A DNA stretch of 64,000 bases from an uncultured virus (IMG/VR IMGVR_UViG_3300033074_002116) (IMGVR_UViG_3300033074_002116), one strand, 5' to 3'. Shown: positions 14,815 through 43,311, counted from the stretch's first letter. The notes: a model not told the origin generated them from the sequence alone. A program made the numbers and translations.

Positions 14815-15111
14815 TTATCGGTTCGATCCCCGGCCCCCAAAATTGCTGTTCCCCTTAATGATAAGGATAACAATGGCGATAAGAATTCCCGCTACAAAGA
14901 CCACCATTACTGCCATTCCCGCGGCACCCCCTGCCCCGGCCACAATGGCGGAATTGTTTGTCATCTGGTTATGGGTATTATTTGATTCGGGGGTGAGGGT
15001 GTTGCCCATGGTATCCACTACCGGATGAGAGTTGGCGCTTGACATGGCGATCAGCCCAAAAGCTGCCGCGAAGATCATTATTACCCCGATAAGAATTACC
15101 CCAACATTCAT
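14815..15111 (-). CDS. Hydrophobic hairpin protein, possible minor capsid (VP3-like) paralog
   Basis: Two hydrophobic helices separated by an Asn/Thr loop with NNT and NNS sequons; basic C-terminal tail. Confidence 0.5.
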   Translation of the reverse strand: MNVGVILIGVIMIFAAAFGLIAMSSANSHPVVDTMGNTLTPESNNTHNQMTNNSAIVAGAGGAAGMAVMVVFVAGILIAIVILIIKGNSNFGGRGSNR

Positions 15112-15619
15112 GGCTTTCTCCCCGGGCAGTTTTTCAGGATTCCCCGCGGGTTGTAAATTATTTCGAAATCACCTTTTTTATCGATAACGTTGTCGCAGCG
15201 ATGTGTTGGGGGGCAGAAGCGCGCCTCGTTAAAGGGTTGGTTGTGTGGGCAGACGAGACAGCACATTACCTCTTTGCCGTCGATGATTACCGGAACTTTG
15301 TTGCCGAACAACCAAGCCATGAGCCGGGCCCACAATGAGAGTAAGAGACCCATTATTCACCTTTTCCCCACGGCAAGATCGTTAAACCGTTGTAATGCTT
15401 CAAACCGTAACCGCTCTGCTTCTTTGTCCTTCTTTGTTTTGATAAAGGAGAATTTCTGTTTTATGTCAAACAGGGCGATCTCCGCAAATACTTTAAGAAA
15501 TGGCCGTTTCCTAATATAAATTTTAGTCTGGGCCAACGGCGGGTTTTGCTTTTCTTTTTGTAGCTGTGGCTTTCCTGTCGAAGGCTCGTTCCGCTTTACC
15601 ACTATCGGTTTTTGTGCCA

Positions 15620-16120
15620 TCAGAGGACCACCGCCAGAATAAATGCTGCTGATATCGGAAGAATCAGGGGAAACCCGCGGTCAACGTATCCGAACATCTT
15701 AATTATACTATCCTTTCTGCCTAAATAGACATTTCGGATAAAGTTGGCCAGTAAAGCCCAGACCATTACTCCGATCAGATATAACATAACGGTGACAGCC
15801 ATGCCGCCCTGATTCGGGTGAAACGGGTTCTGCACGCAGAATACCGATATGATCCAGAGGAACAGCATATCGTCCCCCTGGATATATCCGAACCGCATGA
15901 GGGCGTAATAAATAATGCAGGGAAGGATTGAGACTGCCGCGGCTTCCCATGTGTACATCCCTGTGATGTAAAAGTAAATGAATAGGGGGAGGTTTGCTGC
16001 CGCGAGAATGATCTGGTCCAGTATTGGTACCTGTCTGGATTTGAGATCGTGATAGCAGAATACCGGGATGGCGCAAAGGATTGTGGCAATGGGCCAGTAA
16101 AGGCCGTATTGTTCGATCAC
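15620..16120 (-). CDS. Prepilin peptidase (A24 family, PibD/FlaK-like aspartic peptidase)
   Basis: First Asp motif YHDLKSRQVP, GxGD-like motif GYIQGDDMLFL, C-terminal GFPLILPISAAFIL; multi-pass membrane; GTG start overlaps the upstream TGA. Confidence 0.75.
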   Translation of the reverse strand: MIEQYGLYWPIATILCAIPVFCYHDLKSRQVPILDQIILAAANLPLFIYFYITGMYTWEAAAVSILPCIIYYALMRFGYIQGDDMLFLWIISVFCVQNPFHPNQGGMAVTVMLYLIGVMVWALLANFIRNVYLGRKDSIIKMFGYVDRGFPLILPISAAFILAVVL

Positions 16121-17706
16121 TGTACCTTCCTCGTTCTCTTCGCCACTGAGATTAGCCACTTAACTAACCGATACGCCCCATACAACCCGACAAGACATAG
16201 CCCCCACATCAGATACATGATCTCGTGTTCGTTTTGCACAACTTCCTGCTGCGCCTTGACTTGCTCGTTTGATGGTGTGACTGAGACATATTGTACCGGT
16301 CCGGGCACCTGAACTGTTACGGTCTTGGTTATAACCTGCGGGGTGACAAATGGCGATGCGCCCACGTATTCGATGTACTGCGGAGGGATATAGTGCGCCG
16401 GCGGTTCTTTGTAAACGTAGAACGGAACCGTCATCGTTGCGCCTTGCGGGGAGGACACCGTGATGTAATGGTTGCCCGGGAACATGTTGCCATAATCTAC
16501 CGGTATGAGCGAGTTAAACTGCCGCCACATTCCGGGATCTGCGGTGTTTACATTCTCTGCGACAGATTTCCAGGTCTTATTCATCTTGTAGAAATACGAA
16601 CCCTGATCGATGGTAATAGTTAATGGGGTACCATTCGCTACATTAGTATACCCTCGAACGTTATACCACGTCTGATTGTCCGGATTCTGTAACGCGTCGA
16701 TGCGCATGATCTGGATTTCCGGTTCTGCATACTGCACATTCAGGGTTGTTATTGAATCGTCTATGGATTTTTTTACCATTTCCTTTAAGGCAGATTCTAC
16801 ATTCTGGGGGTTCAATCCATAGATGTTTTTAACTTCGCCATTGCGGAATGGTGATACCAGGGCAGGGTACCGGGTTGTCGTAAATTTTTCCGGTTGGTAC
16901 CCCGGATCATAGTACTCTTCGTAAATGCTGTTATTCCCGGGCGATACTTCGATCAAGTGATAGTTCCCGGTTTCCAGAGACCATTTCGGAGTTTCCAGGA
17001 CTATTGCGGATTTTGCACCCTGATCTAATATCTGTTGTTCGTTTGCATATCCAAACAACCACCAGTGCACCCCTCCCGACACTGCCTGAATTGCCAGCGT
17101 ATCCCCACGGGCAATTAAGATATCCGCTGCTTTCTTCTGGGGCAGATAGGATTCCCGTTGAGGTACCGTCGTTTTAATTTCTTGAATCGCCACTTGTTCA
17201 TGACTTTTATTTTCCGGCACCGGACAGGTCATATTGACTTTAAACATCCTGAGATTGCCTGCCCCCTCTGTTTCCCCATTGTCGTACCGCTGGTACCAAT
17301 AGCCGGTCCGATTTCCGAAGACGAATGGATCAATGTAGAAGTTCTTTAGTTTTGATGCAGTATTGGGCATATCGATTTCGTATTTTGGTGTGGCGTTTTC
17401 GGGAGAGTACGCATCGAAATAGGTTCCGTAATATGAAAGATGCGGCACCCCCCATCCCAATGAGGAGATATCTACGGTGCTATTTAGTGGAACGCAATCG
17501 CCGTTTTCAATATGCAAAGGGGCGCCATATGTCGGGAGCGGGGTTCCATTCTGGGCTTGTGTCGGGGGAATAGAATAACCCGAATAAGTCTGGTTTCCAA
17601 TAAATGTTGAGTTTATAGGTATATCGGATGAAAGGTTGATTTCTTCTGCGCAAACACTGCCGATGCAAATTGCTGAGAGAATTAAAAATAATAAAACTTT
17701 ATACAT
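16117..17706 (-). CDS. Surface glycoprotein resembling Methanomicrobiales S-layer (DUF3821-type) proteins, with C-terminal TM anchor
   Basis: Signal peptide, many N-x-S/T sequons, WWLFG and VRGYTNVANGTPLTITID motifs, Thr/Pro linker, TM plus basic tail. Confidence 0.5.
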   Translation of the reverse strand: MYKVLLFLILSAICIGSVCAEEINLSSDIPINSTFIGNQTYSGYSIPPTQAQNGTPLPTYGAPLHIENGDCVPLNSTVDISSLGWGVPHLSYYGTYFDAYSPENATPKYEIDMPNTASKLKNFYIDPFVFGNRTGYWYQRYDNGETEGAGNLRMFKVNMTCPVPENKSHEQVAIQEIKTTVPQRESYLPQKKAADILIARGDTLAIQAVSGGVHWWLFGYANEQQILDQGAKSAIVLETPKWSLETGNYHLIEVSPGNNSIYEEYYDPGYQPEKFTTTRYPALVSPFRNGEVKNIYGLNPQNVESALKEMVKKSIDDSITTLNVQYAEPEIQIMRIDALQNPDNQTWYNVRGYTNVANGTPLTITIDQGSYFYKMNKTWKSVAENVNTADPGMWRQFNSLIPVDYGNMFPGNHYITVSSPQGATMTVPFYVYKEPPAHYIPPQYIEYVGASPFVTPQVITKTVTVQVPGPVQYVSVTPSNEQVKAQQEVVQNEHEIMYLMWGLCLVGLYGAYRLVKWLISVAKRTRKVQ

Positions 17707-20452: not shown

Positions 20453-20971
20453 TTAGTATGAGTCGTCCGTTTCGTTGTTTCCCGTTTCGGGTTCTGCCAT
20501 AGATCGCATTGCTTTCCAGCTTAAGTACAATCCGATTGTGTTCAGGAGTGTTAAAATAAGTAATGGGAGAAGGCAGGAGTATGCGATCCAGTCAAAGTGG
20601 TAAATAGTGTGGATCTCCATGAGCGCAATGGTCTGGTTGGTTGCAATTGAGGTTGCGCCATAGGAGGTAACCTGATCAACGCTGAACGCTGTTGTGAATG
20701 CGAATCCCGCCGGGAACCATGCCATTACTGAAACGATCCCGCGCTCGCCGTAATCAAACCCTTTGTGGAATGAGATGATAATAAGAGCGATTGCAAGAGC
20801 GATTGCACCGACCCAAAGATAGTAAGGAGTTGCTGGCTGGTTGTTGAGGAGCCAGGTCTGGTTGACAATCGCTGTGTATCCTGCTGGCACGGTCTGCGTC
20901 ATTTCAGCGGATACTGAGCTGGCAAGAGCGAGGATTAAAATAATGAGCAGGAAAGCCCGCGGGATTCGCAT
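20453..20971 (-). CDS. Membrane protein (signal peptide plus 3 TM), putative virion module
   Basis: Hydrophobicity pattern; NQT sequons. Confidence 0.65.
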   Translation of the reverse strand: MRIPRAFLLIILILALASSVSAEMTQTVPAGYTAIVNQTWLLNNQPATPYYLWVGAIALAIALIIISFHKGFDYGERGIVSVMAWFPAGFAFTTAFSVDQVTSYGATSIATNQTIALMEIHTIYHFDWIAYSCLLPLLILTLLNTIGLYLSWKAMRSMAEPETGNNETDDSY

Positions 20972-21028
20972 GATTAGAATGTGTGTAATTGATTTATTTA
21001 AAATATTGGCAAGGCTCTTAAAGGGCGC

Positions 21029-21586
21029 GTGATCACTCCTGAGTGGAGAGAGAAATTACGGCAGGCGAGACTTGGGAAAAAAGCGAGCCCCGAAACCAGG
21101 TTAAAAATGAGTGAGGCACATTCTGGCGAAAAAAATAGTTTTTTTGGTAGGGGACACTCTGAAGAGACCAAAAAAGCCATTAGTGATTTTAGGATACAAA
21201 ATGGAATTGCTGCGGGTAAAAACAATCCGATGTATATCAATGGTAATAGTTTTTTACCATATTGCGAGAAATTTAATCCTGAATTTAAGAGGAGGGTCCG
21301 GGCATTTTTTAAAAATGTTTGCCAAAGATGCGGACATGTTCATCAAGAGGGCGAACCGAATATGACCGTTCACCATGTAAATTATAGAAAAGACTCTTGC
21401 TGTAATAAATACGTGATACCATTATTTATTACGGTATGCACCCCTACGACAAAAGGGCAACCTTGCCATTCTATAACTTCACACGATCGAGATTATTGGG
21501 AGATCTGTTTCACTCAATTAATTAACAACAAGTACCGTGGGAAATGTTACTTTACGAAAGAAGAGTATTACAAAACTGATAATTAG
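21029..21586 (+). CDS. NUMOD3-HNH homing endonuclease
   Basis: SPETRLKMSEAHSGEKNSFFGRGHSEETKKAIS (NUMOD3 repeats); CQRCG...VHHVNY...CH. Confidence 0.85.
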   Translation: MITPEWREKLRQARLGKKASPETRLKMSEAHSGEKNSFFGRGHSEETKKAISDFRIQNGIAAGKNNPMYINGNSFLPYCEKFNPEFKRRVRAFFKNVCQRCGHVHQEGEPNMTVHHVNYRKDSCCNKYVIPLFITVCTPTTKGQPCHSITSHDRDYWEICFTQLINNKYRGKCYFTKEEYYKTDN

Positions 21587-21590
21587 GACA

Positions 21591-21613
21591 CTTTTGGGGG
21601 TTTTCCCCAAAAG
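21591..21613. terminator. Hairpin between the convergent HNH and MCP-like genes
   Basis: CTTTTGGGG-GTTTT-CCCCAAAAG, 9-bp stem. Confidence 0.5.
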
Positions 21614-21639
21614 GAAACGCTGCCCAAATTGAGGCGCAT

Positions 21640-21969
21640 TTAGCGCCTGCCCTGCGTAACGCCCCCCAATCCGATGAGCATATACATGATGCCCGCGAAC
21701 CCTGCAACAATCAGGCCGACGCCTCCGATGGTGAAAGCGGTCGAGATATTGCTGAGCAGGTTAGAGAGCGTGGTGTTGAGCGTAGAGTTGGTGATCGAGC
21801 TTGCAACAGCAACGTAGAGTGCGTTGATGAGCACAAGGCCGATGATAAGGAAGGCTGCACCGACCACGATGGCCATGATGGAACCAACGAGGATAGCGGT
21901 AAATGCACCCTTAGAGATGCCGAGCCATTCCCGTACACCTTCTGCTTTCTTGGAAATCTCTGCAATCAT
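21640..21969 (-). CDS. Putative major capsid protein, spindle-shaped-virus type (SSV1 VP1/His1-like two-helix hairpin)
   Basis: Charged 21-aa leader ending SKG, two long hydrophobic helices joined by a loop with NST/NTT/NIS sequons, basic tail QGRR; own TATA (TTTAATA near 22011-22017), GGGGTGA SD, strongly biased codons (ATC, CTC, AAC, GCA). Confidence 0.7.
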   Translation of the reverse strand: MIAEISKKAEGVREWLGISKGAFTAILVGSIMAIVVGAAFLIIGLVLINALYVAVASSITNSTLNTTLSNLLSNISTAFTIGGVGLIVAGFAGIMYMLIGLGGVTQGRR

Positions 21970-22069
21970 AAACAGTTTCACCCCCTGATCACTATATGAA
22001 ATTTAGAAAGTATTAAATAGTTGTTCAACTCTATTCAATATTAATCATTATTAATGAGAGTGTTTAACT

Positions 22070-22306
22070 ATGTGGGCATATCTGAAAACAATTGGCATGT
22101 ACGTGATCGCGGTAGGACTTCTCATTTTCATTGCGGCAATGGCGGCAATTTTTGGGTTTGGTGCGGTGAGTGTGGTTGTGTCTTGGGCCAGTACCGTAGG
22201 GATCTACTTTATCGCAGCTGGTGCCCTTCTCTTCCTTCTCGGATGCGCTGCTGAATCCAAGAAAGAGAAAGAGGAAAACGATCTCCTTAAAAAGGGCAAT
22301 AACTAA
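22070..22306 (+). CDS. 2-TM membrane protein
   Basis: Two hydrophobic helices and a charged tail. Confidence 0.6.
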   Translation: MWAYLKTIGMYVIAVGLLIFIAAMAAIFGFGAVSVVVSWASTVGIYFIAAGALLFLLGCAAESKKEKEENDLLKKGNN

Positions 22307-22331
22307 ATTTCTTTTTTAAGGAGCGTTCCTG

Positions 22332-22481: not shown

Positions 22482-22483
22482 TC

Positions 22484-23537
22484 TCACTTGTGTATGTGGA
22501 TATGAATCTCTTTTGAATCTCCGCTTTTCTTTTTCTCATTATTCTTTTGGTGCGGCTGCTTCTTTTTTTCCTGTATCCCAAATGAGTCGTCGAATGGGTT
22601 GCTTCCCCCGCCAAAGCTGGGCAGGAATTCCATATCCATATTCTTATATCGCTTTGCTGCTGCGTCTTTTGCGCCGGGTTTATCATATCCATACAGCTTG
22701 TCGCGCACATCCACAATCTTGCCTAAAATACCCCGGGCTTTCCCTAATCCTGACTCCAGGTTATCAGTAAACTCCCCGGCCCCGCTCTTGGTTACGGGAT
22801 GCTGCTCGTCAAAATACTCTGCTTCTTCTTCGTAGTCTTTCAGGACTTCTTTGGGTAATGGCTGTGGCATAAAAATAAGAGAGTTAGAAGAGATCGATTA
22901 GCGAGTCGGGAACGCACATGGGATCGTCAATGGCACAGGTTCCTGCGCGCCGGGATCCGCGCTCTTTCTTTCCTTTCTTCGCAGAAGGAGCACGACGGCC
23001 AACCGGCACAGGATTTAACCAGCTTCCCCCGCCAAAGCCGAAGAAGTTAATGTCGCCCACAGGAGATGATGCTGATTTACCGGTGTTTCTTGATAATCGT
23101 TTCCCCCGGGATGCCTGGTCGAGCCGTTCGCCACGGTCATGTACCGGGTAACCGTAAAGATCGTCGCGGAATGCCACGACATCGTTTAAGAGTCCGCGGC
23201 CTTTTCTTTCTACCCGTTCCCCGCGGGTTTCTTTGTGGATGCTGGAAGTGTTTGCCCTGCGTGGGGTGCGCCAGTCTGAAGAGTCCTGCCCGAAGATATC
23301 GGAATCGTGATAGGGTTTGCGATCATCTACTTCGGTAAAGTCTACATCGATGGTGCGGTCGTTGGCATAACTCTTGCGGGATTCTGCGTGCTCTGTCGAG
23401 ACCGCATTGTCGTTTGAGGACGTGACACTGGTACCGGGCCCAAGCTGTTTCTGTCTCCTGTGAAATTTTCCGCCTTCGATTTCAGATATGTCGGAATCTT
23501 CTACCATGGGTTTACCTTCTGGCATTCCTTGCTGCAA
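22484..23537 (-). other. Two paralogous low-complexity charged proteins (22484-22870, 22884-23537)
   Basis: Shared RG[IL]L..[IV]V..RD.LYGY and FGGGS..NP-like motifs. Confidence 0.65.
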
Positions 23538-23715
23538 TAACCCTGCGTTTCAGTTTGAGAGTTACCGGATATCCGCGGACGTGTGTGTCGATATTTGCTT
23601 CGGCAATTTCGTCAAGCAATCCTTCAGGTAATTTCTGATCGCAGGGGTACCCAAGCTGTCGGTGAAGCGCGCACGGGTGGCGGCTGAATGCTTCCTGCTC
23701 CCAGCGATCTACCAT
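23512..23715 (-). CDS. Small basic viral protein
   Basis: HPCALHRQLGYPCDQKLP...LKRRVIAAR resembles a small basic phage protein pattern (PGALH..LG.P...K.P). Confidence 0.55.
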   Translation of the reverse strand: MVDRWEQEAFSRHPCALHRQLGYPCDQKLPEGLLDEIAEANIDTHVRGYPVTLKLKRRVIAARNARR

Positions 23716-23723
23716 AGTGCACC

Positions 23724-23879: not shown

Positions 23880-23892
23880 AACGTGCCTCCGT

Positions 23893-24610: not shown

Positions 24611-25696
24611 TCACTTTGCCGGGGCAGACATAAACGCAAAGATTACGCGCACGACAAAGATGATTGCCGCAAATCCCAGGCCACCACCAATAATTAACGG
24701 GATGTATTTGTTGATCAGGTTCTTTGAATTCTCTTCGTCGTCTTTTGCCTGCTGTCTCCGGGCACCTGCCTGTTCGTTGTCTTCGATAGTTACCGGGAAT
24801 GCCGAGTCTATCCTAATCCAGGGGATTGTGACTGTTGGTTCTATATGGGGAAGCATTTTGTCTTTGGTTTCTTGGGTAATGCTTTTCCCATCCAATAACA
24901 TTCTCTGAAATTTCATATAAGATTCTACGCGGTCATTGGGATTGGTTTCGTTCCACATTTCCCGGAATCTTTCTATCTCTTTGTGCTGGATTGAGCTGCG
25001 GATCGTCCAGCGCCCCGCATCAAGGATCTGGTCGGTATCGGTCCCACCAACTGTTGTTGAAGAAGTCTGATCCCAATCTGCTTCTCCCTCCAACTTTTTG
25101 GCGATCTCCACGTCCATGTTGCGGTGCCCGAACTTGTAAAGGATGGCATGCATCCAGTCCAGTTCAGACGGATCGAGATACGCAAGGGGATAATAGAACA
25201 AGAATTTCTGGAGCCCTTTTAATATGGCTTCGTAATTTATCGGGAGAGCGCAAAGGATGCCACCGATAATTAATCCGACTAAGAATCCCCATAACCCGAA
25301 GATCAGTATTCCGATTGTCATTAAGATAATCAGGATAATGAACGAGATTCCTTTTGAGAGGAGATTCTTTGGCAGGCCCCAGTCGAAGTCTTCCAGGAGG
25401 TAGGTGCACTTTGAGTAATCGCAGATTACTTTTGCCTGTGCTTCACTCCATAATTCCATGACCAGGTTTATATTGAAGATAAACGCTGCTTTGCTCTGCG
25501 CCTTGAACGCAAAGAATAATCCCCAGAGCGGTTTGTATTTCTCCCATACGCCGTACCGGAAAGCCAGCCATGTGCATATGGCGAAGAATGTTATGAATAT
25601 CCAGAACCACCCGTAAATGGGGATCCCAAAGAAGGGATCTACGATATCGAATAGTCCGCCGAAAAATAATACTTGTCCTGCCATGTTATTTACCAA
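24611..25696 (-). CDS. Multi-pass membrane protein of the morphogenesis module
   Basis: N-terminal, internal and C-terminal TM segments. Confidence 0.75.
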   Translation of the reverse strand: MVNNMAGQVLFFGGLFDIVDPFFGIPIYGWFWIFITFFAICTWLAFRYGVWEKYKPLWGLFFAFKAQSKAAFIFNINLVMELWSEAQAKVICDYSKCTYLLEDFDWGLPKNLLSKGISFIILIILMTIGILIFGLWGFLVGLIIGGILCALPINYEAILKGLQKFLFYYPLAYLDPSELDWMHAILYKFGHRNMDVEIAKKLEGEADWDQTSSTTVGGTDTDQILDAGRWTIRSSIQHKEIERFREMWNETNPNDRVESYMKFQRMLLDGKSITQETKDKMLPHIEPTVTIPWIRIDSAFPVTIEDNEQAGARRQQAKDDEENSKNLINKYIPLIIGGGLGFAAIIFVVRVIFAFMSAPAK

Positions 25697-34103: not shown

Positions 34104-34775
34104 TCACTTGTGAATGAACGACAGCAATATCCCAGCAATCCCGGCTGAGAACAGTACCGCCCCCAAGCTCTGCATGTACGTCGGCATGCCCATGTATAAC
34201 CCGCTTGTGTTGGATATCAGCAATGGTCCGACTATGATAAAAATAATCCCGATAAGCCGGATAGACTTGGTGTTCCTCCATATACCGATTGTTATGAACC
34301 CTATAATCATTGCAAAGACAAGAGTAACCGGAATGTTTGCCGTATATGCGGTTATCAATGCGGCGGGCATTAGCGCGAGGTTCCAGTGCGACGTTATAAT
34401 TGCGTTCAGCGGCGCGTCATAGTTGTTGGTCGGGACCGGAGTTATTGCTGCCATTGTCCACGATACCTGATTTCCGCATCCGGTGCTGTCGCAGGGCACA
34501 CCATAATAGGTCTGGCCCCCCAGGAGGGGTGCACCCCAGACTGTGACCTGCCCGTAGCTTGCAGACCAGTTATCTGAATACCAGACGTACGTTCCCGACA
34601 CTTCGGAATACTTTACGAACACCGGTCCGGACGCACCAGAAATCGGAATCGTTACGTTATTGCTCGTTATTGAGGTTGGCGTTCCAGCGGTCGGGACTGC
34701 ATAAGACCCCGGCATCCCCAACCCTATGACGATCATGACAAAGAGGATAAAATGGGCCACCCTATACATATTCAT
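34104..34775 (-). CDS. Membrane protein with an extracellular beta domain and 3 C-terminal TM
   Basis: Signal peptide, beta-rich domain, hydrophobic C-terminus. Confidence 0.7.
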   Translation of the reverse strand: MNMYRVAHFILFVMIVIGLGMPGSYAVPTAGTPTSITSNNVTIPISGASGPVFVKYSEVSGTYVWYSDNWSASYGQVTVWGAPLLGGQTYYGVPCDSTGCGNQVSWTMAAITPVPTNNYDAPLNAIITSHWNLALMPAALITAYTANIPVTLVFAMIIGFITIGIWRNTKSIRLIGIIFIIVGPLLISNTSGLYMGMPTYMQSLGAVLFSAGIAGILLSFIHK

Positions 34776-35037
34776 CGTATACGGTCCTCCTCCCCACCAC
34801 TGCAATAAAAGCAATAACCAGAATGATTTCAAAGATAAGAAGCAGGCTGAACACAAACCCGAATATCCATGTGAACGGCCCGATGGGGATAACCTGGTTT
34901 GCCCCGGTGACTACGTTTTCCATGGCGTGTACAAATGGTCCGAGGAAAGCGTTACAAACGAAATATAATATGATAATGATCACGGTGTTTATAACCAGTG
35001 CCAATCCCGCGAGGAATACTTCAACTGTACTCGCCAT
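34762..35037 (-). CDS. Two-helix hydrophobic hairpin protein (MCP-like architecture)
   Basis: Two TM helices and a charged tail GRRTVYDEYV. Confidence 0.6.
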   Translation of the reverse strand: MASTVEVFLAGLALVINTVIIIILYFVCNAFLGPFVHAMENVVTGANQVIPIGPFTWIFGFVFSLLLIFEIILVIAFIAVVGRRTVYDEYV

Positions 35038-35039
35038 GA

Positions 35040-35297
35040 TCAGACCACCTGGTTTGTAGCCTGGTGTTCGTTAATGACGTAGTTGACCCATACCCCAATA
35101 AAGATCAATACCATAATCCCCGTCCATGCGGTCTGCATAATATTCATTCCATTAACTGCGTCCTGAAAACTTGGCAGCACTGTTATCGATACATTAAATG
35201 CGCGGGTGATTACTTCCACCACTTTGCCCAAAATTACCCATATAACCGCAAACGCCACGGTGTTCCACATTGCCCCGAATAAGGATCCAAAACTCAT
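35040..35297 (-). CDS. Two-helix hydrophobic hairpin protein (MCP-like architecture)
   Basis: Starts MSFGSLFGAMW via an ATGA overlap; NVS sequon in the loop. Confidence 0.6.
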   Translation of the reverse strand: MSFGSLFGAMWNTVAFAVIWVILGKVVEVITRAFNVSITVLPSFQDAVNGMNIMQTAWTGIMVLIFIGVWVNYVINEHQATNQVV

Positions 35298-36106
35298 ATC
35301 GCACCTTCCGAGGGAAACATTTTCAGGTAAGCGTTTGTCAGGAACAACACATCCACTGCCCAGAACGTTACCGATATTGCACCCCATACTGCAATGTACG
35401 CCGGCGTATCCGTTACCCCCGGCCATATACCCTGAATTACATTGGTGATCACGGCGGCAGAATTTATCACGCTGATAAATGCATTCCCAAGGAAATTGAG
35501 CATTCCAATGAATGCGGTGGTGAGCCCATAAAGAACGCTCGCGACATCCCCGAGAGCCCCGGCGTTCTGTACTGTTGACGATGATGTCTGGAACTGGATA
35601 TTGGAGTACTGTGTGCATGTCGCAGATGGCGGGCAATAACTCTGGTTATAGATCGGCGCGCTGGTAACGTCCGTGCTGAATATCCCTAGAGCAGGGGTTA
35701 GTCCCAAACAGACCTGGAACAAGATAATAAACATCATTATATTAATGTACTTCGATCCCGGTCCTGCAATGCCGTTGATTTGTTTGTTCTGCTCGTTTGC
35801 ATAAATTATTACCCCGAACAGACCGGCTATGATCAGGCAGGCAAGGGCATTTAACTGGTTGGAGAATGACAGCCACCCGAACATGTATTCCATTCCGGCG
35901 AATATTGGGATGAATACGCAATATGCGGCCTCTCCCCTTGATCCTGTTGTGGCCGCCACCAGCAAAAGCAGGATTACTGCTACATAATTATAATACATCT
36001 GCGCTGTGGTGATGTCCATGAAATTCTCAAATCCCAAAGGTACGAGGATTCCTGTTGGCCCGCTCAATATTGCCGATCCGACAATGGCCAGAGACGACGT
36101 AATCAA
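35294..36106 (-). CDS. Multi-pass membrane protein, possible adhesin anchor
   Basis: At least five hydrophobic helices; GTGA-coupled to the adhesin gene. Confidence 0.7.
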   Translation of the reverse strand: MITSSLAIVGSAILSGPTGILVPLGFENFMDITTAQMYYNYVAVILLLLVAATTGSRGEAAYCVFIPIFAGMEYMFGWLSFSNQLNALACLIIAGLFGVIIYANEQNKQINGIAGPGSKYINIMMFIILFQVCLGLTPALGIFSTDVTSAPIYNQSYCPPSATCTQYSNIQFQTSSSTVQNAGALGDVASVLYGLTTAFIGMLNFLGNAFISVINSAAVITNVIQGIWPGVTDTPAYIAVWGAISVTFWAVDVLFLTNAYLKMFPSEGAI

Positions 36107-39100
36107 CCACTCCGCACCGGGTACATCCCGTAATTAATTGTCATTCCCCTTACATTAGGTATGGTGTAATTAAACTCTATTAAAGATGTTCCCGGATTAC
36201 CGTAATCGTGAGACCAGAATACCGTGCCGTTGTCTTTGCAGGTCAGGTTCATGAAGAGATCTGTTGTCAGACCGAGAGGATCCTGATACTGATAATTTGC
36301 CGTTACATAAGATTTGTTTGGTTCGGAGAGCCAGACATATGATTTTGCCAGTTGGGTTGCCGTGGTGTTGTACCCCAACGACTGGGAGCTTGTTGGGCAA
36401 TATAGAATGTAATCATTATCTTCCGGAGCTAATGATTTCTGGCAACTTACCCCTGCCGTGCTGTTTACCATTGAGAGGGAATATGTTAACGAGGGAAACA
36501 TTGTAAATACCTGCGCGCCATCCGTTGCTGTGATTCCTTGCATAGCCATGCCGCTATTCATCATGGTTTCAGCCACGCTTGCCGATACCCCGAATGCCTG
36601 TTCAAGGAATGTGGCGTTGTTCCCCGGTAATGTTGAATTTACATACGATGCTGTAATAGTAATGCCTTTAAGGGGATTTGCCCATAGATCGAGAACCCTT
36701 AAACGGACCTGGTGCTGGGTGTAGATAATGTTGGTGTTTTGTGATTGCGTTGTCGCCGCCGTCATCTGCACCGTTTCCACCCGATCCGCAGTCATAATAT
36801 AGGAGACGGTTTTGCTTTGGTACCCATCTGAATACAAGTACAATACCACAGTCGAGTACCCGAATGTACCGGTATAGGTTCCGGTCGGGGTATTAACTGA
36901 GGTGCCATCCGCTGCATTAACCACCCTCACAATTGGGATCGGAAGATTCGTTGAAGAATCAACGAAGTTCAGTGTTAACGTATACAGCGGATCCATTACA
37001 AGATCCTGTTGTGTGTATCCAGAGAATCCGGATTTAACCCAGATATAATTTATCTTCGATGTAGTGTTGGATCCAATCCCGTTTGTAACGGTGAGATTAA
37101 CGGTATAATTCCCGGCAGAGGAATACGCGTGAACCGGGTTTTGCAATGTGGATCCGAATGTATCGCCAAAATCCCAGGACCATGAAGTTGGAATACCGGT
37201 TGATGTATCATTGAACTGCACCGATGATCCAACGGATACCGTAGTTGGTGTGCCGGTAAAATTCGCTACCGGGGAAGCAGGAACAGCGGTGGTGACATTG
37301 ATATAATTGGTTCTTGTCAGCGTATTGGTAACGCTGGCATTTTCTGACATATACGCGGTTTCAGATACTGTGTATAATCCAATAGATGAATAAGTATAAG
37401 TCGGGTTTTTTACACTCGACGTATTTCCGTCTCCAAACGACCACGAATATGCGCTCGGATACCCGAAAGAATTGTCCGTGAATGTAACCGGGAATCCCCC
37501 TGCTACCAACGTCGGAGATCCGGTGAAGTTCGCAGTTATTGGTCCCCACGTTCCGATAATCGCGCTATAATTAACGCTAGAGCCGAACGTGTAATATGTC
37601 CCGTCTGTTTCATACTGGCTTGATCCAAACGAGAAATTATCCAGCGATCCGGGCGAGATGTATTTGGTGTAGGTTATGTCGAAATCCAGAATAGCTGTGC
37701 TCGACGTTGGAATCGGTATTCCACCGGATTTGTTCACTACAAAGTTTGCGAATCCCCCCGTGGAATTAATTGATGATGAAATCAAGGATAGGCCAGCGGT
37801 CTGCGAAGTATTTACACGGAGATTGCTTACTCCGACATGCGCGGTATTCCACGTTAAATTTCCACGGACGCTGGTCGTGTTCGTGATATTCTGTATTACA
37901 ACCGTTTCGGTATATGGCGTCTGATTGTTGATCTGCGTACTGGATGTAAGCGATTTATATTTTATAACTGAACCCGGAGACGATCCCCATTTCCCTGCAA
38001 CGGCGTAACCGGACGAAAGCGTGTTAAACGGCCAATAGGTGAGATTGGTTGAGTCGTAATATTTACTTGCGTTCGTAAACGATGCCAGAACGCTATACCC
38101 GGGAGCTGCATAAGATACGTAGGATACATTGAGATCTAAGATTGCGGCCCCGTTTGGATAGGGAATAGCAATCCCGGCTGCCCGACTTACACTGAAGTTG
38201 ATCCAGTTTGCATTAATGTCATATGAATCTAATACTAATCCTGATGGAATTGATGATGTGTTTATCCTGAGATTGTTTACTGCAAATACGGTTTGGTTAA
38301 ATGAGATATTGCCAATTACATTTGTGGTGTTTGTTATATTTCTCACTACTACTGTGGCGGTATAAGGCGTTCCATTGTTAATTGAAAGGGATTCGCCGGC
38401 TTTGAATTTTATCCATGAATATGGGTTTGGATCTGCTCCGGATGTAACATTGATCCACTGCGATGCAGACGTGTTGCTTCCCGCTGCGTTCGTGGCCGTG
38501 AGATTCACCGACCAGTTTCCCACTCCAAATGTGTGCGTGGCGTTCTGCACTGTACTGGTGTTTCCGTCACCGAAATCCCAGTGCCACAGGGTTGGATCTA
38601 ATGATGTTGTGTCGTTAAACTGCACTGATAGGGGAGCGGTGCCCGAGGTGGCGTTAGCCGTAAACGCGGCCGTTCCTGTAGCGAGGTGCGCCCATACATA
38701 TTCTCCGATCAGTCGCTGCCCTTCCGTGTTTGGATGGACAACATCACGCATCAGGCTCTCGTTGATTTCGTCGGGGATTCCGTTGCCCGGGATACTATCC
38801 ACGGCATCAAATGCCTTGATGTACGACCGATTGCGGGCATCAAGACACGCTTCAATTGCATATATTTTGGCCCATTGCTCGGAATACGTGGAGTTCCAGA
38901 ATCTTGTCGTGTTGAACACTGTATTGATGAGGATGTAGGGGATACTTCCGGCCGCCGATTGGGAGTCTGCAATTCCTATGAGGTTTTCACACGTTCCCTC
39001 ACCGGTCGTATAATTCCAGTCGTTCGCTCCGAATAACGTGAAACTTTTCCGTGGGACCCCGTATAATGGATGTGTTGCCACATTTGCAAGGCCCCAGATT

Positions 39101-39804
39101 GAAGTCTTTCCTGATCCGTCGGTATTTCGGTACACGCTTGCATTCGGGTCGTGCGTCGCAACCATTTGTAGGATATAGGTGTCCGACGCTGCTGTGAAAC
39201 TATCTCCGTATGCCCAGTCAGCAAATATCGGGTCTGTATATGCAGTAGCGACGCCCCCCGATTCAAGTTGGACCCCATCAACGTAGAAATCGGCAGTTTC
39301 GTTAGCGGCAGTCCGGATTTGGATTTTTGCGCCTCCGGCAGAAGTACCAAACGTTTTATTGATGGAGTATCGGGTGAATGTGCTCGTCAGAGTAATGGTG
39401 CTGGATGCAACGTTGTTGATGTACGTTCCGTTCGAGGCGTATTCGTAGAGATATATTTTGACTGTTCCGTTGCCCTTGAGGTACGTTGAAGCCGTGTATT
39501 GCTGACCGGGAGTTATGTTGGTGGCGGGATCTGTATATATTCCCTCTCCTATGATTAGGTGGGGTGTGGTGGCGCCGATTGAGTAATTTCCCTGCCATGC
39601 TGTAGAGTTGGTGGCCGTGAGTGTCACGCCGGAACTTGCCAAAAATCCGTCCGTTATGGCGAACTCTCCACCATCGGCAGAATTGAGCCACAATATATTT
39701 TCTGCCCCCGCCATTCCCACCAGCATCCCAAAAATCAGGATACCGATCAATGCCAGTTGCCACTTCCGGATCCCGGCTTTCCCTTCGCTTGTTTTACCTT
39801 TCAT
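36103..39804 (-). CDS. 1233-aa secreted adhesin: CBM-like domain, SGNH/GDSL hydrolase, three PKD domains, two cohesin-like repeats
   Basis: FYVDGVQLE (CBM-like); AYGDSFT, FGANDW, DVVHPN (SGNH); WHWDFGDG, YSWSFGDG, WSWDFGD (PKD); repeated INN.TPYT.TVV..NITNTT.V.GN. Confidence 0.85.
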   Translation of the reverse strand: MKGKTSEGKAGIRKWQLALIGILIFGMLVGMAGAENILWLNSADGGEFAITDGFLASSGVTLTATNSTAWQGNYSIGATTPHLIIGEGIYTDPATNITPGQQYTASTYLKGNGTVKIYLYEYASNGTYINNVASSTITLTSTFTRYSINKTFGTSAGGAKIQIRTAANETADFYVDGVQLESGGVATAYTDPIFADWAYGDSFTAASDTYILQMVATHDPNASVYRNTDGSGKTSIWGLANVATHPLYGVPRKSFTLFGANDWNYTTGEGTCENLIGIADSQSAAGSIPYILINTVFNTTRFWNSTYSEQWAKIYAIEACLDARNRSYIKAFDAVDSIPGNGIPDEINESLMRDVVHPNTEGQRLIGEYVWAHLATGTAAFTANATSGTAPLSVQFNDTTSLDPTLWHWDFGDGNTSTVQNATHTFGVGNWSVNLTATNAAGSNTSASQWINVTSGADPNPYSWIKFKAGESLSINNGTPYTATVVVRNITNTTNVIGNISFNQTVFAVNNLRINTSSIPSGLVLDSYDINANWINFSVSRAAGIAIPYPNGAAILDLNVSYVSYAAPGYSVLASFTNASKYYDSTNLTYWPFNTLSSGYAVAGKWGSSPGSVIKYKSLTSSTQINNQTPYTETVVIQNITNTTSVRGNLTWNTAHVGVSNLRVNTSQTAGLSLISSSINSTGGFANFVVNKSGGIPIPTSSTAILDFDITYTKYISPGSLDNFSFGSSQYETDGTYYTFGSSVNYSAIIGTWGPITANFTGSPTLVAGGFPVTFTDNSFGYPSAYSWSFGDGNTSSVKNPTYTYSSIGLYTVSETAYMSENASVTNTLTRTNYINVTTAVPASPVANFTGTPTTVSVGSSVQFNDTSTGIPTSWSWDFGDTFGSTLQNPVHAYSSAGNYTVNLTVTNGIGSNTTSKINYIWVKSGFSGYTQQDLVMDPLYTLTLNFVDSSTNLPIPIVRVVNAADGTSVNTPTGTYTGTFGYSTVVLYLYSDGYQSKTVSYIMTADRVETVQMTAATTQSQNTNIIYTQHQVRLRVLDLWANPLKGITITASYVNSTLPGNNATFLEQAFGVSASVAETMMNSGMAMQGITATDGAQVFTMFPSLTYSLSMVNSTAGVSCQKSLAPEDNDYILYCPTSSQSLGYNTTATQLAKSYVWLSEPNKSYVTANYQYQDPLGLTTDLFMNLTCKDNGTVFWSHDYGNPGTSLIEFNYTIPNVRGMTINYGMYPVRSG

Positions 39805-41429
39805 TTCCTTATTTCACTCCTTTTTCCGTGATGGAATGCAACCGGGATCACTGCGTCTGTCACGTAATATGTGCTGCCATTGCTAACATAGAATGCCATA
39901 TTCCCGTCGGTCGCATTCCGGAAAAATACCTCAGTGCCGTCGGTTACGTTCCGGACAGTATATGCCGGGTTGTAGGTAATATTTACCTCGACCAATGCAG
40001 GATAGCCGTTGGTATGTGCTGTGAAATTGAGCAACGCGTTCGGGTCTGTATTTTCGATAAATGCAGCATCGTTCGTATTTGTTGACATTTTCCACCAGTC
40101 TATAAAAGGCACAAATATTGTGTTTTTTGCGGAATACCCAGTAACAAACGAATTGTATTTCGAAGGGTCTATAGATGCCGCAATAGCAGGGGAAACGTCG
40201 GTTTGGTGGGTGAACGAACGGTAAATAATACCAGATGGCTGAACGGTGCTCCACCACCCATCCCACGTTGCATTTTCAAGGTTCCCTATATTGGGGAGAG
40301 ATTTTACCCCGGTATATCCGTTTCTTGATATCATGCCATATTTGGTATATGCATAATTTGAATTTTCCCAGCTCTCATTATCTTGGAGAGAGCAAAACGA
40401 TGTAGGGGTCTGATTAAATATGGATATAATTGCCGTTGTATTTGAATCAATTGCTTTTTCTGCCTCTGATGTGTTGAGTTTGCCCAGATCAACCGTTTCG
40501 TGCTCTCCCAATTCCCATCCCTGCGAAAGGAGAGTTTTTGTGTATGATACAACATCTGGATCATTTAGATAGTTAGGATCTGCCCATATTGTGGCTCTTC
40601 CATTATTTGCAGAGATTAATAAAGATCCATTATGCCAAGTCGATAACGGATTCTGTGGACCATCAACCCCGGTGGCAAGAGATAGGGGATCCCCGATAGA
40701 AGTAATGTTCCCATTTTTGATTATGCTTTGATTTATCGAATGTATTACTAAGGTTTCGTTCGTCTCTGCTGCTGTAGGCACCCCCTGAAATGTAATCGTG
40801 TTTGTCGAAGGGATCTCATACGGGAGCGTAGTTACGACCCCCGGTTGGTTAAGTGTCGAGGTCATATTATACGATCCTACAGTCACAGTATAACTTTGAT
40901 TATACCCATCAAAATCCAATTGTAGAGTTACCGGGGATGGATAATTAGCAGTTGTGATAAATGATTGCCGACCATTTGTACCATTCGGCCTCTGATAATA
41001 TTGATAAACTATTACAGCATTGCTTGAAGATCTCTGGAATATAACGTACATATTTCCACTGACAATGTTAACGTAAGAATTCCAATTTGTTCTATTTATA
41101 TCCAGTGTGATATAATAACTTGTTTTCACGGCAGGAGATAATCCCCCAACTATGAGCATTCCCTTACTATTCGTAATATTCCAGTTTCCGGTAACCCCGG
41201 TGCCGGGAGAAAATCCCCATGAAGCGTTTACGGTATATGGACTGACTGCGTTTGCCATGGCTATATCTGATGGTGTACTACTCATTGATGTATAATTATT
41301 GGAGTAAAGTATAATGTTCGATGCACTAGAGACACCCATCAAAGCCGCCATCATCACAAGGCCAATTATTCCCAGCTGCCACTTCTGGACCTCTCGTTTT
41401 ACCGTGCTTGTTTCATCATTGTTTTTCAT
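39801..41429 (-). CDS. Secreted glycoprotein with a NodB/polysaccharide-deacetylase-like domain
   Basis: GVDGP, ATIW, GWELGEHET.DLGKL..EAEKAI...TPTSF; signal peptide. Confidence 0.65.
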   Translation of the reverse strand: MKNNDETSTVKREVQKWQLGIIGLVMMAALMGVSSASNIILYSNNYTSMSSTPSDIAMANAVSPYTVNASWGFSPGTGVTGNWNITNSKGMLIVGGLSPAVKTSYYITLDINRTNWNSYVNIVSGNMYVIFQRSSSNAVIVYQYYQRPNGTNGRQSFITTANYPSPVTLQLDFDGYNQSYTVTVGSYNMTSTLNQPGVVTTLPYEIPSTNTITFQGVPTAAETNETLVIHSINQSIIKNGNITSIGDPLSLATGVDGPQNPLSTWHNGSLLISANNGRATIWADPNYLNDPDVVSYTKTLLSQGWELGEHETVDLGKLNTSEAEKAIDSNTTAIISIFNQTPTSFCSLQDNESWENSNYAYTKYGMISRNGYTGVKSLPNIGNLENATWDGWWSTVQPSGIIYRSFTHQTDVSPAIAASIDPSKYNSFVTGYSAKNTIFVPFIDWWKMSTNTNDAAFIENTDPNALLNFTAHTNGYPALVEVNITYNPAYTVRNVTDGTEVFFRNATDGNMAFYVSNGSTYYVTDAVIPVAFHHGKRSEIRK

Positions 41430-41452
41430 TTCCTTAAAATTACAAAACCACT

Positions 41453-43192
41453 TCACGTTCCCACCGCCGTTACTTTATGCACGATCGAATTATTAAACCC
41501 GGACTTACTACTCCACACATCATACACCATACCATTGACCAAGTTGTTTACAACACACCATCCAGCAATGTTGGTAGTACAGGTATATTCAGTACCATTT
41601 TTAACGTGACGGGTTGCATTCGTTATTGGATTACCATATTGCCCATCTGCTACAACTCCCCCTATTGCAACACCGGTATAGGTGTGCGTAGTTGGAGAGA
41701 GCGAGATATTCAAAGGGAGATTCCCTGCAGATAGCGGTTTAAATGTTCTTGTGTTATTTGAATATCCGCTTTTTGTTGTAAGCAATGAAATATCTGTACC
41801 GGTTAACCAATATTGGGTGGTGTTCCCCCATCCGGTAGATGCAGAAGTATATGCGATGCTTGTTGATCCCTGCGTCGCGGTCACTGTTGCTCCGGAAAGA
41901 ACCGTTGCGTTTTCCTGGTTCATTACATAACCGGAAAGATAGACATATGCAGACACCTCTGTTGCCGAGTGTGCCATAATATAATTAGTGGTTGAGGATA
42001 TGGGCATTGCATTGAGTTCCGCGTAATAAACCCCGGGGGACACTCCATTAAGTGGCATCAAAATTGAACCACTCTGGGAAGAGACTGATTGTGTTCCCAC
42101 AACAGTACCATAAATATCTACAACCTTTATATTGTACGTGTAGGAAAGTGTATTGTAATAAGCTGTTGGAATTGAATACGAGATATTTGCTGTTTCACCG
42201 TTACCATACGTTCCTTTCTCCCACGACACTATAGAACCGAGCGCGGCGGTTACACTGAAGTAATCCGACGATCGGACACTGCCGGTTGTGGCATCTCTAA
42301 GATATATTGTGTATATTCCATATTCCAACGGAGAGTTGTCAATATATGATGAATTAAACTGAACCGGAATAATCCCACATGCGGAATTATAATGTGCAAA
42401 ATTTATATAAGTATCGCTGGTTTGTTTTCCCGAGGGACTAACTATTACAACATGATATCGGGTATTTGGTGGATTTGTAATATCCCATCCATCTGCATAA
42501 GGACCGATGCTGAATTGGAGATTTAAGTACGAATTGTTGACAATTTGATCGGCTGCATTATATTCTCTGGTTATTGTAGATAGAAGATCCCGATTAATTA
42601 CAAAGGTATGTGGTGGGGCCGATATGAGTGCGGTGTCCGTATACAAATTGTCTGAAGAGAGATCATCAATATAACTAAATGTGGGGCTATACCCATATCT
42701 CGAAACACCGAAAGCAAACATATATGCCGGATAAGTTGAAACTCCCGTGATTGTAGTGGATAAAACTCCATCTAAATATACATACTCGTTTGATCCCGAA
42801 ATAACAACTTCGTATCTATGCTCTATATAACTAGCCCCTATACGATTATTAGTCAAAAGGTTGCCGGATGCATCAAACGTTCGGAGATCTATTATCGGAC
42901 CCCCGCTTGGATTACTGGAGCGCATTGTGGCGGCAACATATGATAACGGAGTGCCCACCACCGGAGATAAAAGATTAGCAGAATCTCCATTGGAGTTAAC
43001 GTTTGCTCCATATGTATCGGAATATGCCGAATTTATATTGTAATTAAATCCCGGACCAAAGGTGCATGTTTGATAACCATCCCCAATGCAGGTGTATGCC
43101 CTTTCACCATTATTCATATTATCTGACCATGCCATGGACCCGGCTATGCACCCCATCATGAGACAGACCATTACAAAAAGGCGCCACTTCAT
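41453..43192 (-). CDS. Secreted beta-rich glycoprotein with carboxypeptidase-regulatory-like domains
   Basis: Signal peptide; LSGYVMN...LSGATV; GGVVADG.GNPI.NAT; TKSGY/SKSGF. Confidence 0.7.
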   Translation of the reverse strand: MKWRLFVMVCLMMGCIAGSMAWSDNMNNGERAYTCIGDGYQTCTFGPGFNYNINSAYSDTYGANVNSNGDSANLLSPVVGTPLSYVAATMRSSNPSGGPIIDLRTFDASGNLLTNNRIGASYIEHRYEVVISGSNEYVYLDGVLSTTITGVSTYPAYMFAFGVSRYGYSPTFSYIDDLSSDNLYTDTALISAPPHTFVINRDLLSTITREYNAADQIVNNSYLNLQFSIGPYADGWDITNPPNTRYHVVIVSPSGKQTSDTYINFAHYNSACGIIPVQFNSSYIDNSPLEYGIYTIYLRDATTGSVRSSDYFSVTAALGSIVSWEKGTYGNGETANISYSIPTAYYNTLSYTYNIKVVDIYGTVVGTQSVSSQSGSILMPLNGVSPGVYYAELNAMPISSTTNYIMAHSATEVSAYVYLSGYVMNQENATVLSGATVTATQGSTSIAYTSASTGWGNTTQYWLTGTDISLLTTKSGYSNNTRTFKPLSAGNLPLNISLSPTTHTYTGVAIGGVVADGQYGNPITNATRHVKNGTEYTCTTNIAGWCVVNNLVNGMVYDVWSSKSGFNNSIVHKVTAVGT

Positions 43193-43311
43193 AATCGCAG
43201 CCTCCGCCTAATGAATTTATCAAAAGACTCGTTTGGTTTCTTTTGCTTTTGAACTTCTCTAACGGTTTTTTTGGTTAATCTCTGGCTGGTGTAATCAGAT
43301 TTTCCACTCAT
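43189..43311 (-). CDS. RHH/antitoxin-like protein (40 aa, not in ORF track) heading the adhesin operon
   Basis: MSGKSDYTSQRLTKKTVREVQKQKKPNESFDKFIRRRL; ATGA overlap; TTTATAAATA upstream. Confidence 0.65.
   Translation of the reverse strand: MSGKSDYTSQRLTKKTVREVQKQKKPNESFDKFIRRRLRL

Follow-up and report, generated by a model that had tools for sequence, protein, structure and literature searches.

Spindle-shaped viruses of archaea, among them Fuselloviridae, Halspiviridae and Thaspiviridae, are the closest described systems to the element considered here, which is carried on the uncultured-virus contig IMGVR_UViG_3300033074_002116 (IMG/VR; 78,547 bp); the stretch analysed, hereafter the window, comprises 64,000 bases of this contig, the other 14.5 kb lying outside its coverage. 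In the fusellovirus SSV1, the mature N-terminus of the capsid protein VP1 is the Glu that follows a K-G pair, no protease has been assigned to the cut, and the five residues preceding it are essential (PMC5748691). Large spindle-shaped viruses of anaerobic methanotrophic (ANME-1) archaea include Tepeuviridae PBV144 (72.6 kb) and Itzamnaviridae and have their genes divided between structural and enzymatic arms (PMC9894754). Eurekaviridae, with Methanosarcina spindle-shaped virus 1, and Huangdiviridae have been predicted as spindle viruses of methanogens and sediment archaea (PMC12451623; PMC10848311), and two digester contigs of spindle-type viruses are in print (PMC9796341).

We favour, without great confidence, the reading that a block of minus-strand genes in the window makes up the morphogenesis (structural) arm of a large archaeal double-stranded DNA virus that lacks a tail, belongs to the spindle-shaped assemblage and represents an undescribed lineage; the host of the element would most likely be a methane-cycling archaeon. 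A preliminary description of the stretch had recognised the block as a large minus-strand unit with many transmembrane (TM) proteins, a Walker A/B ATPase and a separately promoted, codon-biased gene for a hairpin protein with a sequon-rich loop, and each of these features was recovered. The open reading frame (ORF) listing places the block at 14815-43192, with plus-strand interruptions only at 21029-21586 and 22070-22306, and 27 of its 40 proteins have at least one hydrophobic segment by Kyte-Doolittle scan; the ATPase (27504-28628) and the hairpin gene (21640-21969) are taken up below.

The tie to described spindle-shaped viruses runs through the ATPase, which bears the motifs GDKGDGKS (Walker A) and LIIDD (Walker B), has no TM segment in the same scan and, judged from its profile matches, is a diverged but demonstrable relative within a family common to these viruses. 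The sole PHROG family that it matches, phrog_5484 (E 1.7e-4), contains SSV1 B251 (5.2e-101) and His1 ORF16 (2.8e-62). The same family is matched by related ATPases from L033 (41% identical to the window protein; 9.6e-15 over profile positions 25-224 of 239), L035 (1.5e-7), P0024 (5.9e-6) and P0036 (3.4e-5), and it ranked first for each of the five ATPases tested, four of which matched no other family. In profile-profile comparison (hhalign), an alignment of 26 ATPase relatives (A1) reached B251 with a probability of 93.9% (E 1.5e-7) over 114 columns that extend from Walker A to past Walker B, and His1 ORF16 with 15%. When the L033 ATPase was compared by tblastn with 50,697 phage and archaeal-virus records, 29 were matched, 28 of them from Sulfolobus viruses; the best 15 rows were all from Sulfolobus spindle-shaped virus, the top one at E 1e-4 with 24.9% identity over 59% of the query. 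The window ATPase itself had no tblastn match in the phage collection (E<=0.01) and none among 72,556 plasmid records. Its AlphaFold2 model (pLDDT 83) consists of an additional strand, catalytic E (ASCE) P-loop core followed by long helices, its structural neighbours in the ESM Atlas include a B251-like cluster (TM 0.50/0.70), and a sequence search of the PDB with the ATPase profile gave nothing useful, the best match being the helix-turn-helix (HTH) of MntR at E 0.024.

The ATPase is accompanied by a conserved set of genes. Thirty-six relatives were retained from 2256 candidates in a collection of 5.8 billion proteins, all of them without a name or annotated as hypothetical and on contigs of up to 73 kb, and a search with A1 located one locus in a species genome (a 3-kb contig of a Bathyarchaeota metagenome-assembled genome) and 45 in metagenomes. 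Synteny was assessed by tblastn of the 109 window proteins against these 46 loci, most of which span 1-8 kb, so that counts for distal genes are lower bounds. The ATPase was matched at all 46 loci and the hairpin at four, with the other genes at the frequencies listed in Table 1, and the syntenic core has the order 119-residue protein, ATPase, 120-residue protein, 181-residue protein, 305-residue membrane protein, 361-residue membrane protein, hairpin. L035, whose ATPase is 34% identical to that of the window, keeps the order PKD adhesin, four membrane proteins, giant protein, ATPase and core genes, and L033, a locus on a 71.6-kb contig, also carries the recombinase, at 60% identity. Sequencing runs from estuary, aquatic and wastewater samples contain related sequence, its summed depth being high.

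The candidate major capsid protein is the 109-residue hairpin, whose gene, from its layout, appears to be set up as a stand-alone, strongly expressed unit. The protein begins with an amphipathic helix and continues through a [K]G/AFT site (the slash marking the presumed cut), hydrophobic helix 1, a turn with three sequons (NST, NTT, NIS) and hydrophobic helix 2; in its AlphaFold2 model (pLDDT 78.5), helices cover residues 2-16, 20-56 and 62-107. Reading of the sequence shows a TATA-like box belonging to the gene itself and a Shine-Dalgarno sequence, GGGGGTGA, 9 nt upstream of the ATG at 21969, and the GC content of the gene at third codon positions is 0.66 against a median of 0.48, which ranks 3-4 among the 109 genes. 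Three N-x-S/T sequons compare with 0.7 expected, at least three being reached in 24 of 1000 shuffles, and N61 and N65 are invariant or nearly so in the family alignment. The first search for homologues retained 15 of 108 candidates, and an exhaustive profile search returned 81 cluster representatives at E<=1e-3, of which 32 were at 1e-10 or better. The hairpin is also the most conserved protein of the module, with 92% amino acid identity in L002 compared with 66% for the ATPase and 52-72% for other core proteins, and in runs X2 and X3 (estuary and aquatic contigs) its gene is 97-98% identical in nucleotides versus ~85-90% for neighbouring pieces. Conservation, expression signals and sequons together point to an abundant structural protein and fit a lattice-forming coat protein.

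If the hairpin is a lattice-forming unit, paralogues and proteins that carry a permuted hairpin would be expected, and L033 encodes, by the family hidden Markov model (HMM), two hairpin paralogues and a 327-residue protein that ends in a permuted hairpin. In this last protein (L033:1429-2409, minus strand) and in P0113 and P0127, an outer domain of 200-250 residues is followed by a helix-2-like segment placed before a helix-1-like one, i.e., in swapped order; these larger proteins look like accessory proteins anchored in the same lattice. No second copy was found in the window by the family HMM (next best E 0.026), and the "three similar hairpins" of the preliminary description did not withstand comparison, other small two-TM proteins sharing the topology only (blastp E>3).

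The gene for a NUMOD3 homing endonuclease lies convergent to, and directly after, the hairpin gene. Depth over the endonuclease region in X2 is 105 compared with 320-650, and related populations show a junction that skips 21552-21650, which fits a sporadically present selfish gene.

The hairpin leader ends in a motif that is conserved throughout the family. [KR][GA] stands directly ahead of helix 1 in 16 of 16 members of alignment A2 (SKG/AFTAILVG in the window, KKA/FTA and similar in distant members) and looks like an archaeal class III signal-peptidase site; taken alone it would be weak evidence, since basic residues often precede membrane helices. The translated SSV1 VP1 precursor reads PKLTKG/EATNIG at the corresponding place. 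The block also encodes a 179-residue protein with four TM segments that is a probable prepilin peptidase of family A24. Its homologue in L020 (L020:6676-7164, 35% identical) matches Pfam Peptidase_A24 (1.2e-6; 29.3 bits against a cut-off of 26.5), and both Asp motifs, D38 in HDLKSRQVP and G95-x-D97, are kept in the two proteins (alignment A3). The 179-residue protein is called no more than probable because it has no Pfam match of its own at E<=0.01 and a PDB sequence search with the peptidase pair was also empty. The pilin encoded at 46542-47006 would be a clear substrate for the peptidase in any case.

From these features we put forward, tentatively and as a doubtful proposal, that a widespread, unclassified lineage of large spindle-type viruses uses the hairpin as its capsid protein, and that this protein is matured by a virus-encoded class III signal (prepilin) peptidase. 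If true, an enzyme class could be assigned to the cleavage of fusellovirus VP1, which follows the same K-G motif and has long gone unexplained, and spindle capsid proteins would enter assembly as pilin-like membrane precursors. The pairing of a prepilin-type peptidase with a K-G leader makes the question of the protease in spindle capsid maturation directly testable, and no paper proposing such a peptidase for this step was found in the limited library of literature searched.

Head-tail genes were sought by scanning the window proteins against Pfam (n=109), PHROGs (n=109) and NCBIfam (n=64). Terminase, portal, HK97 and tail families were absent from these scans, no structure-based screen being made, so that the statement of the preliminary description that no terminase, portal or HK97 motif occurs in the 64 kb is borne out in all three family collections. 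Double jelly-roll and conjugation ATPase families were likewise absent among the window proteins by the same scans, and no head, tail or conjugation genes were found by Pfam in 74 ORFs of L033, L035, L020 and L012, which contain PKD adhesins, PMT_2 glycosyltransferases, HNH endonucleases and a Dam methylase. Three PHROG rows labelled "terminase large subunit" were rejected, as each of them lies within residues 116-516 of the SNF2 helicase, its intein/homing-endonuclease part; primase and helicase-loader rows fall on the same residues, and all of these rows would reflect shared inteins. The lack of head-tail hallmarks in these scans speaks for a non-tailed virus, and the intein, homing endonuclease, tRNAs, antirepressor and methylase are virus-typical.

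Table 1. Positions of the features of the window discussed in the text (strand "." where none applies).
Feature	Position	Strand	Evidence
216-aa tyrosine recombinase	759-1409	+	phrog_1 4.7e-8; L033 homologue, 60% identical, matches Phage_integrase 1.8e-7
SNF2 helicase split by LAGLIDADG intein (residues ~250-435)	6412-9264	+	Pfam SNF2, Helicase_C, LAGLIDADG_3, Hom_end
98-aa two-TM protein and 81-aa Cys-rich protein	14815-15353	-	kept in L020 next to peptidase
179-aa four-TM class III signal (prepilin) peptidase, family A24, probable	15620-16159	-	homologue, Asp motifs
529-aa secreted sequon-rich protein, DUF3821 domain, C-terminal anchor	16117-17706	-	Pfam; L020 homologue adjoins peptidase
172-aa membrane protein, signal peptide, next to hairpin gene	20453-20971	-	2/46 loci: L002 60%, L033 36%
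NUMOD3 homing endonuclease	21029-21586	+	Pfam 2.8e-15
Terminator-like GGGG/CCCC stem-loop then T-rich run, 26-49 nt past hairpin stop	21591-21614	-	sequence only
109-aa two-helix hairpin protein with leader, candidate major capsid protein	21640-21969	-	homologues, AlphaFold2, signals
Divergent intergenic region with TATA-like boxes, GGGGGTGA Shine-Dalgarno ahead of hairpin ATG	21982-22069	.	sequence reading
78-aa membrane protein	22070-22306	+	ORF listing
67-aa conserved protein, basic C-terminus	23512-23715	-	4/46 loci
361-aa core multi-pass membrane protein	24611-25696	-	12/46 loci
305-aa core membrane protein, two TM helices around ~195-aa domain	25686-26603	-	18/46 loci
181-aa core protein	26600-27145	-	12/46 loci
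120-aa core protein	27142-27504	-	22/46 loci
374-aa P-loop ATPase, SSV1 B251 / His1 ORF16 family, C-terminal helical (HTH-like) tail	27504-28628	-	profiles, AlphaFold2
119-aa core protein, directly upstream of ATPase, TATA-like box right before ATG	28628-28987	-	30/46 loci
1224-aa protein, one central TM helix	29349-33023	-	ORF listing, TM scan
Four membrane proteins (250, 91, 198, 270 aa)	34104-36106	-	syntenic with L035
Three large secreted proteins (1233, 551, 579 aa), candidate host-attachment proteins	36103-43192	-	Pfam, NCBIfam, sequons
154-aa archaeal type IV pilin-like protein, class III signal peptide (TEA/VSPVIG)	46542-47006	-	Pfam Pilin_N 2.4e-16; TIGR02537 4.5e-11

Sequons are denser in the block (15.0 per 1000 residues) than outside it (4.5). 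Among the large proteins they are enriched in the 1233-residue (57 versus 23.7 expected; 0/1000 shuffles), 529-residue (13 versus 4.5; 0/1000 shuffles) and 551-residue proteins (21 versus 11.6; 3/1000 shuffles), but not in the 579- and 1224-residue proteins by the same shuffle test. The 1233-residue protein has three PKD domains (PKD_4 2.7e-36) and an N-terminal GTA_spike_fiber domain (NF048003, 6.3e-9; 36.6 bits against a cut-off of 36). Over 29408-32063, within the gene for the 1224-residue protein, depth in X2 falls from ~470-670 to 52-85, and in three related populations no part of the arm is covered less than the C-terminal two-thirds of this protein, likely a hypervariable host-range region. 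Glycosyltransferases of the PMT_2 (dolichyl-phosphate-mannose) type lie near adhesins in L033 (72-1205, minus strand) and L020 (9807-11063, minus strand), and none was recognised in the window.

Most window proteins remained without a family assignment in the three collections, and those that have one point to an archaeal mobile element. In addition to the genes in Table 1, the scans identified RadC, an MT-A70 methylase, a P22-type antirepressor domain, TrmB/MarR-type winged helices and weak Pfam matches to TFIIB zinc ribbons. A low-GC (~35%) insert of 3.1 kb lies at 43382-46544, flanked by 34-nt inverted repeats that are 94% complementary; it contains five or six small genes, including one for a 380-residue protein that corresponds to phrog_22469 end to end (2.4e-58) and has no tblastn match in the phage collection. 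No transposase or defence family was recognised in the insert, and PADLOC returned only generic helicase and methylase rows for this island and the genes at 47-53 kb. A radical SAM protein (47569-48345, minus strand) has a weak likeness to "radical SAM mobile pair protein B" and to spore photoproduct lyase; with its gene begins a series of unannotated soluble proteins (47.5-55 kb) that includes a 553-residue coiled-coil protein.

An archaeal host is well supported by gene content, because the element encodes the pilin, the A24-type peptidase, TrmB-type regulators, an MreA-family homologue and the B251-type ATPase. The MreA-family homologue (109 residues; 45-374, minus strand) resembles transcription regulators of Methanosarcina at 9e-15, below the curated cut-off, and has 18 relatives at 54-87% identity on short metagenome contigs. 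TAG ends four of the 109 predicted genes, compared with a share of 16% of stop trinucleotides on both strands, and the window encodes a tRNA with a CUA anticodon (10277-10365, plus strand; 89 nt; Rfam tRNA 47.7 bits) that has a long variable arm (class II) and discriminator A. The tRNA-Pyl label assigned to it by ARAGORN was set aside in favour of an amber suppressor of the Leu/Ser type. Genes for tRNA-Pro(UGG) and tRNA-Gln(UUG) follow directly downstream (10475-10623, plus strand), bringing the tRNAs to three. Recoding of TAG was considered and rejected, as readthrough joins no credible genes and in-frame recoding of TAG was not observed. Methanogens that use pyrrolysine rarely end their genes with TAG. 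Avoidance of TAG and an amber-suppressor tRNA would, if they point anywhere, point to a host in which TAG is ambiguous, and, provided that this picture of pyrrolysine users is right, Methanosarcinales-type hosts would fit better than the Methanomicrobiales named in the preliminary description.

Under the favoured reading, the hairpin protein would insert into the host membrane, its ~21-residue leader would be removed at [KR][GA] by a class III signal peptidase, perhaps that of the element itself, its turn would be N-glycosylated and it would polymerise into the hydrophobic shell that encloses the genome. Genome delivery and assembly at the membrane may be organised by the two core membrane proteins together with the B251-type ATPase and its putative DNA-binding tail, and the PKD/spike-fibre glycoproteins and the hypervariable 1224-residue protein may form the attachment end. 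Release would occur by budding or extrusion, without lysis.

Several observations weigh against this reading. The preliminary description had called for comparison of the hairpin with the capsid proteins of SSV1 and His1, and this failed to reveal a likeness: hhalign of the 16-member A2 or of an 82-member alignment against SSV1 VP1, mature VP1, VP3, the VP1/VP3 pair and His1 VP21 gave probabilities of 0.1-4.5%, no capsid Pfam family was matched by the 16 family members or 79 further representatives, and none of 76 distant representatives matched phrog_5402 or phrog_11172 at E<=0.01. Fold searches with the hairpin returned generic helical hairpins only (Foldseek against PDB and BFVD, E>=0.49; VIA Z<=9.8), with two Nitrosopumilus spindle-virus proteins at Foldseek ranks 2 and 9, not significant, and no virus capsid chain among the best 50 rows of a wide VIA search; tblastn of the hairpin in the phage collection had no match at E<=10. 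The five other core proteins, compared with 46 SSV1 and His1 proteins (hhalign, 4 of 20 alignments run), resembled none of them, the probability reaching 19.8% at best. The fold of the ATPase is a generic ASCE one, for which RAD51/RadA, the Zot N-domain, STIV2 B204, AAA+, VirB4 and HerA are tied (Foldseek E 2.5e-4 and up; VIA Z 9.3-11.6), and its nearest Atlas clusters are viral, labelled mostly Uroviricota. Relatives of the ATPase were absent from the IMG/VR copy in single-protein and profile searches, and thus no independent pipeline calls the family viral. Finally, 14.5 kb of the contig lie outside the window.

Other comparisons of the hairpin bear on the same question. Nine of the 16 family members touched phrog_5402, the SSV VP3 family, below threshold (best E 0.19), as did none of ten other small TM proteins of the window used as a control; for scale, His1 VP21 reaches the fusellovirus VP1 family at E 0.029 only. 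Two of the 76 distant representatives matched phrog_16261 (~1e-3), a family known by its label "virion structural protein" only. The hairpin agrees with the capsid architecture of the assemblage, ~70-90 residues when mature with two hydrophobic helices and a short polar turn, in having ~88 residues after the KG site and helices at 20-56 and 62-107; this architecture is not specific, as many unrelated hairpins are returned by fold searches. The spindle-type assignment of the preliminary description stands in so far as the element looks like a non-tailed archaeal virus with a related ATPase, but not in respect of the hairpin, for which no similarity to the SSV1 and His1 capsid proteins was detected.

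The foremost rival, though an unlikely one, is a non-viral mobile element, such as a large integrative plasmid, an element of the pT26-2 type or a relative of integrative-conjugative elements (ICEs), in which the membrane module would be a secretion, pilus or vesicle apparatus and the hairpin a pilin-like or vesicle protein cut by the element's peptidase. B251-type ATPases occur on pT26-2-type plasmids, and the absence of the family from the IMG/VR copy is compatible with such an origin. The integrase, type IV pilin, probable A24 peptidase and weak TFIIB zinc ribbons also fit, as prepilin peptidase, pilins, an integrase and TFIIB are found on thaumarchaeal ICEs (PMC6563490), a point that likewise counts against a viral assignment. 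However, the signature ATPases VirB4/TrbE and VirD4/TraG, as well as FlaI/PilB and platform-protein families, were absent by Pfam from the 109 window proteins and the 74 ORFs of relatives, so that the hallmarks of an archaeal ICE or type IV secretion system are lacking there, VirB4 (4ag5) being only one of many tied ASCE folds (Z 10.8). Furthermore, the plasmid records contained no match, the only named relatives of the ATPase are spindle-shaped viruses, and the intein, the homing endonuclease beside the hairpin, the tRNAs and the hypervariable adhesin are more typical of viruses.

A non-tailed virus might instead use the same module to build another kind of particle, a pleomorphic membrane vesicle or a filament that a Zot-like ATPase extrudes, with the hairpin as an envelope or coat protein unrelated to the spindle capsid; we judge this distinctly unlikely. 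It would account for the lack of detectable homology between the hairpin and the SSV1 and His1 capsid proteins, and Zot recurs among the similarities of the ATPase: of the 26 members searched with Pfam, 17 touched Zot (best 3e-4), 14 nSTAND3 and four AAA, every one of these matches lying below threshold, the Zot N-domain 2r2a is among the fold matches (Foldseek E 4.3e-4; VIA Z 10.4, rmsd 4.2, 160 aligned), and phrog_1675, the family of M13 protein I, is reached by the L033 ATPase at 5.4e-5. That last match nevertheless falls nine orders of magnitude behind phrog_5484, the best family throughout, and the window ATPase scores 16 bits against a Zot cut-off of 20.3 and has no TM segment, unlike a Zot/protein I ATPase. 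Families of pleolipovirus-type fusion proteins were absent from the window proteins (Pfam, PHROGs), and the size, two-helix layout, glycosylation-type turn and KG-type cut site of the hairpin parallel SSV1 VP1. Very improbable is a head-tailed virus in which the membrane block would be an accessory and the genes for head and tail would be located in the other 14.5 kb (the contig being 78,547 bp and the window 64,000 bp) or have diverged beyond recognition. The Uroviricota labels of the Atlas neighbours, the "head spike fibre" domain of gene transfer agents and phages on the PKD protein and the unannotated soluble proteins at 47.5-55 kb could be cited for it, but few soluble proteins of at least 250 residues remain unexplained, terminase, portal, HK97 and tail families are missing from window and relatives alike, the 29-kb conserved membrane arm is without counterpart in tailed viruses, and the matches of the L033 ATPase are to Sulfolobus viruses and one other record among the 50,697.

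Compared with the described spindle-shaped viruses, the element resembles SSV1 (Fuselloviridae) in its homologous ATPase, in a small two-helix hydrophobic protein with a glycosylation-type turn whose leader ends K-G before helix 1, in its tyrosine recombinase and in large secreted proteins encoded in the same arm. Besides B251 and an integrase, SSV1 has the hairpin capsid proteins VP1 and VP3 and VP4 as the protein of its end filaments. The element differs in that the contig (78.5 kb) is about five times larger than the SSV1 genome (15.5 kb), in that the ATPase has 374 residues with N- and C-terminal extensions against 251 in B251, and in its own A24-type peptidase, pilin, tRNAs and intein; no sequence or profile similarity of the hairpin to VP1 or VP3 was detected, and the other core proteins tested matched no SSV1 protein. 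His1 (Halspiviridae) shares the PHROG family of the ATPase, with a C-terminal helical/HTH tail in both proteins, and a single hairpin capsid gene, but ORF16 reaches only 15% by hhalign, the hairpin gave no similarity to VP21, and His1 has a protein-primed polymerase and a linear genome of 14.5 kb.

The large ANME-1 spindle viruses, compared by description only, are alike in size class, in the split into two arms, in having one or two hydrophobic helical capsid proteins and in their hosts, which are methane-cycling archaea; unlike them, the window shows no family B polymerase. Eurekaviridae and Huangdiviridae were likewise identified by a hairpin capsid protein and an ATPase, and their capsid proteins carry sequons, but those proteins are recognisably SSV1-like by HHblits, whereas the window hairpin is not. 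Because spindle viruses of methanogens and ANME-1 archaea have been published, among them one of 72.6 kb (PMC9894754), neither the size nor the host class is unprecedented, and the "unusually large" of the preliminary description was overstated; the element probably represents a family-level new lineage within the known spindle-type viruses. What is new is a widespread lineage that is invisible to the viral collections searched, with a capsid candidate outside the recognised SSV1 and His1 families and a virus-borne prepilin-type peptidase in the same block. Little is known of the viruses of methanogens and other sediment archaea, and those without tails escape standard virus detection; a set of markers made up of the hairpin, the five core genes and the B251-type ATPase offers a way to recover viruses such as this one.

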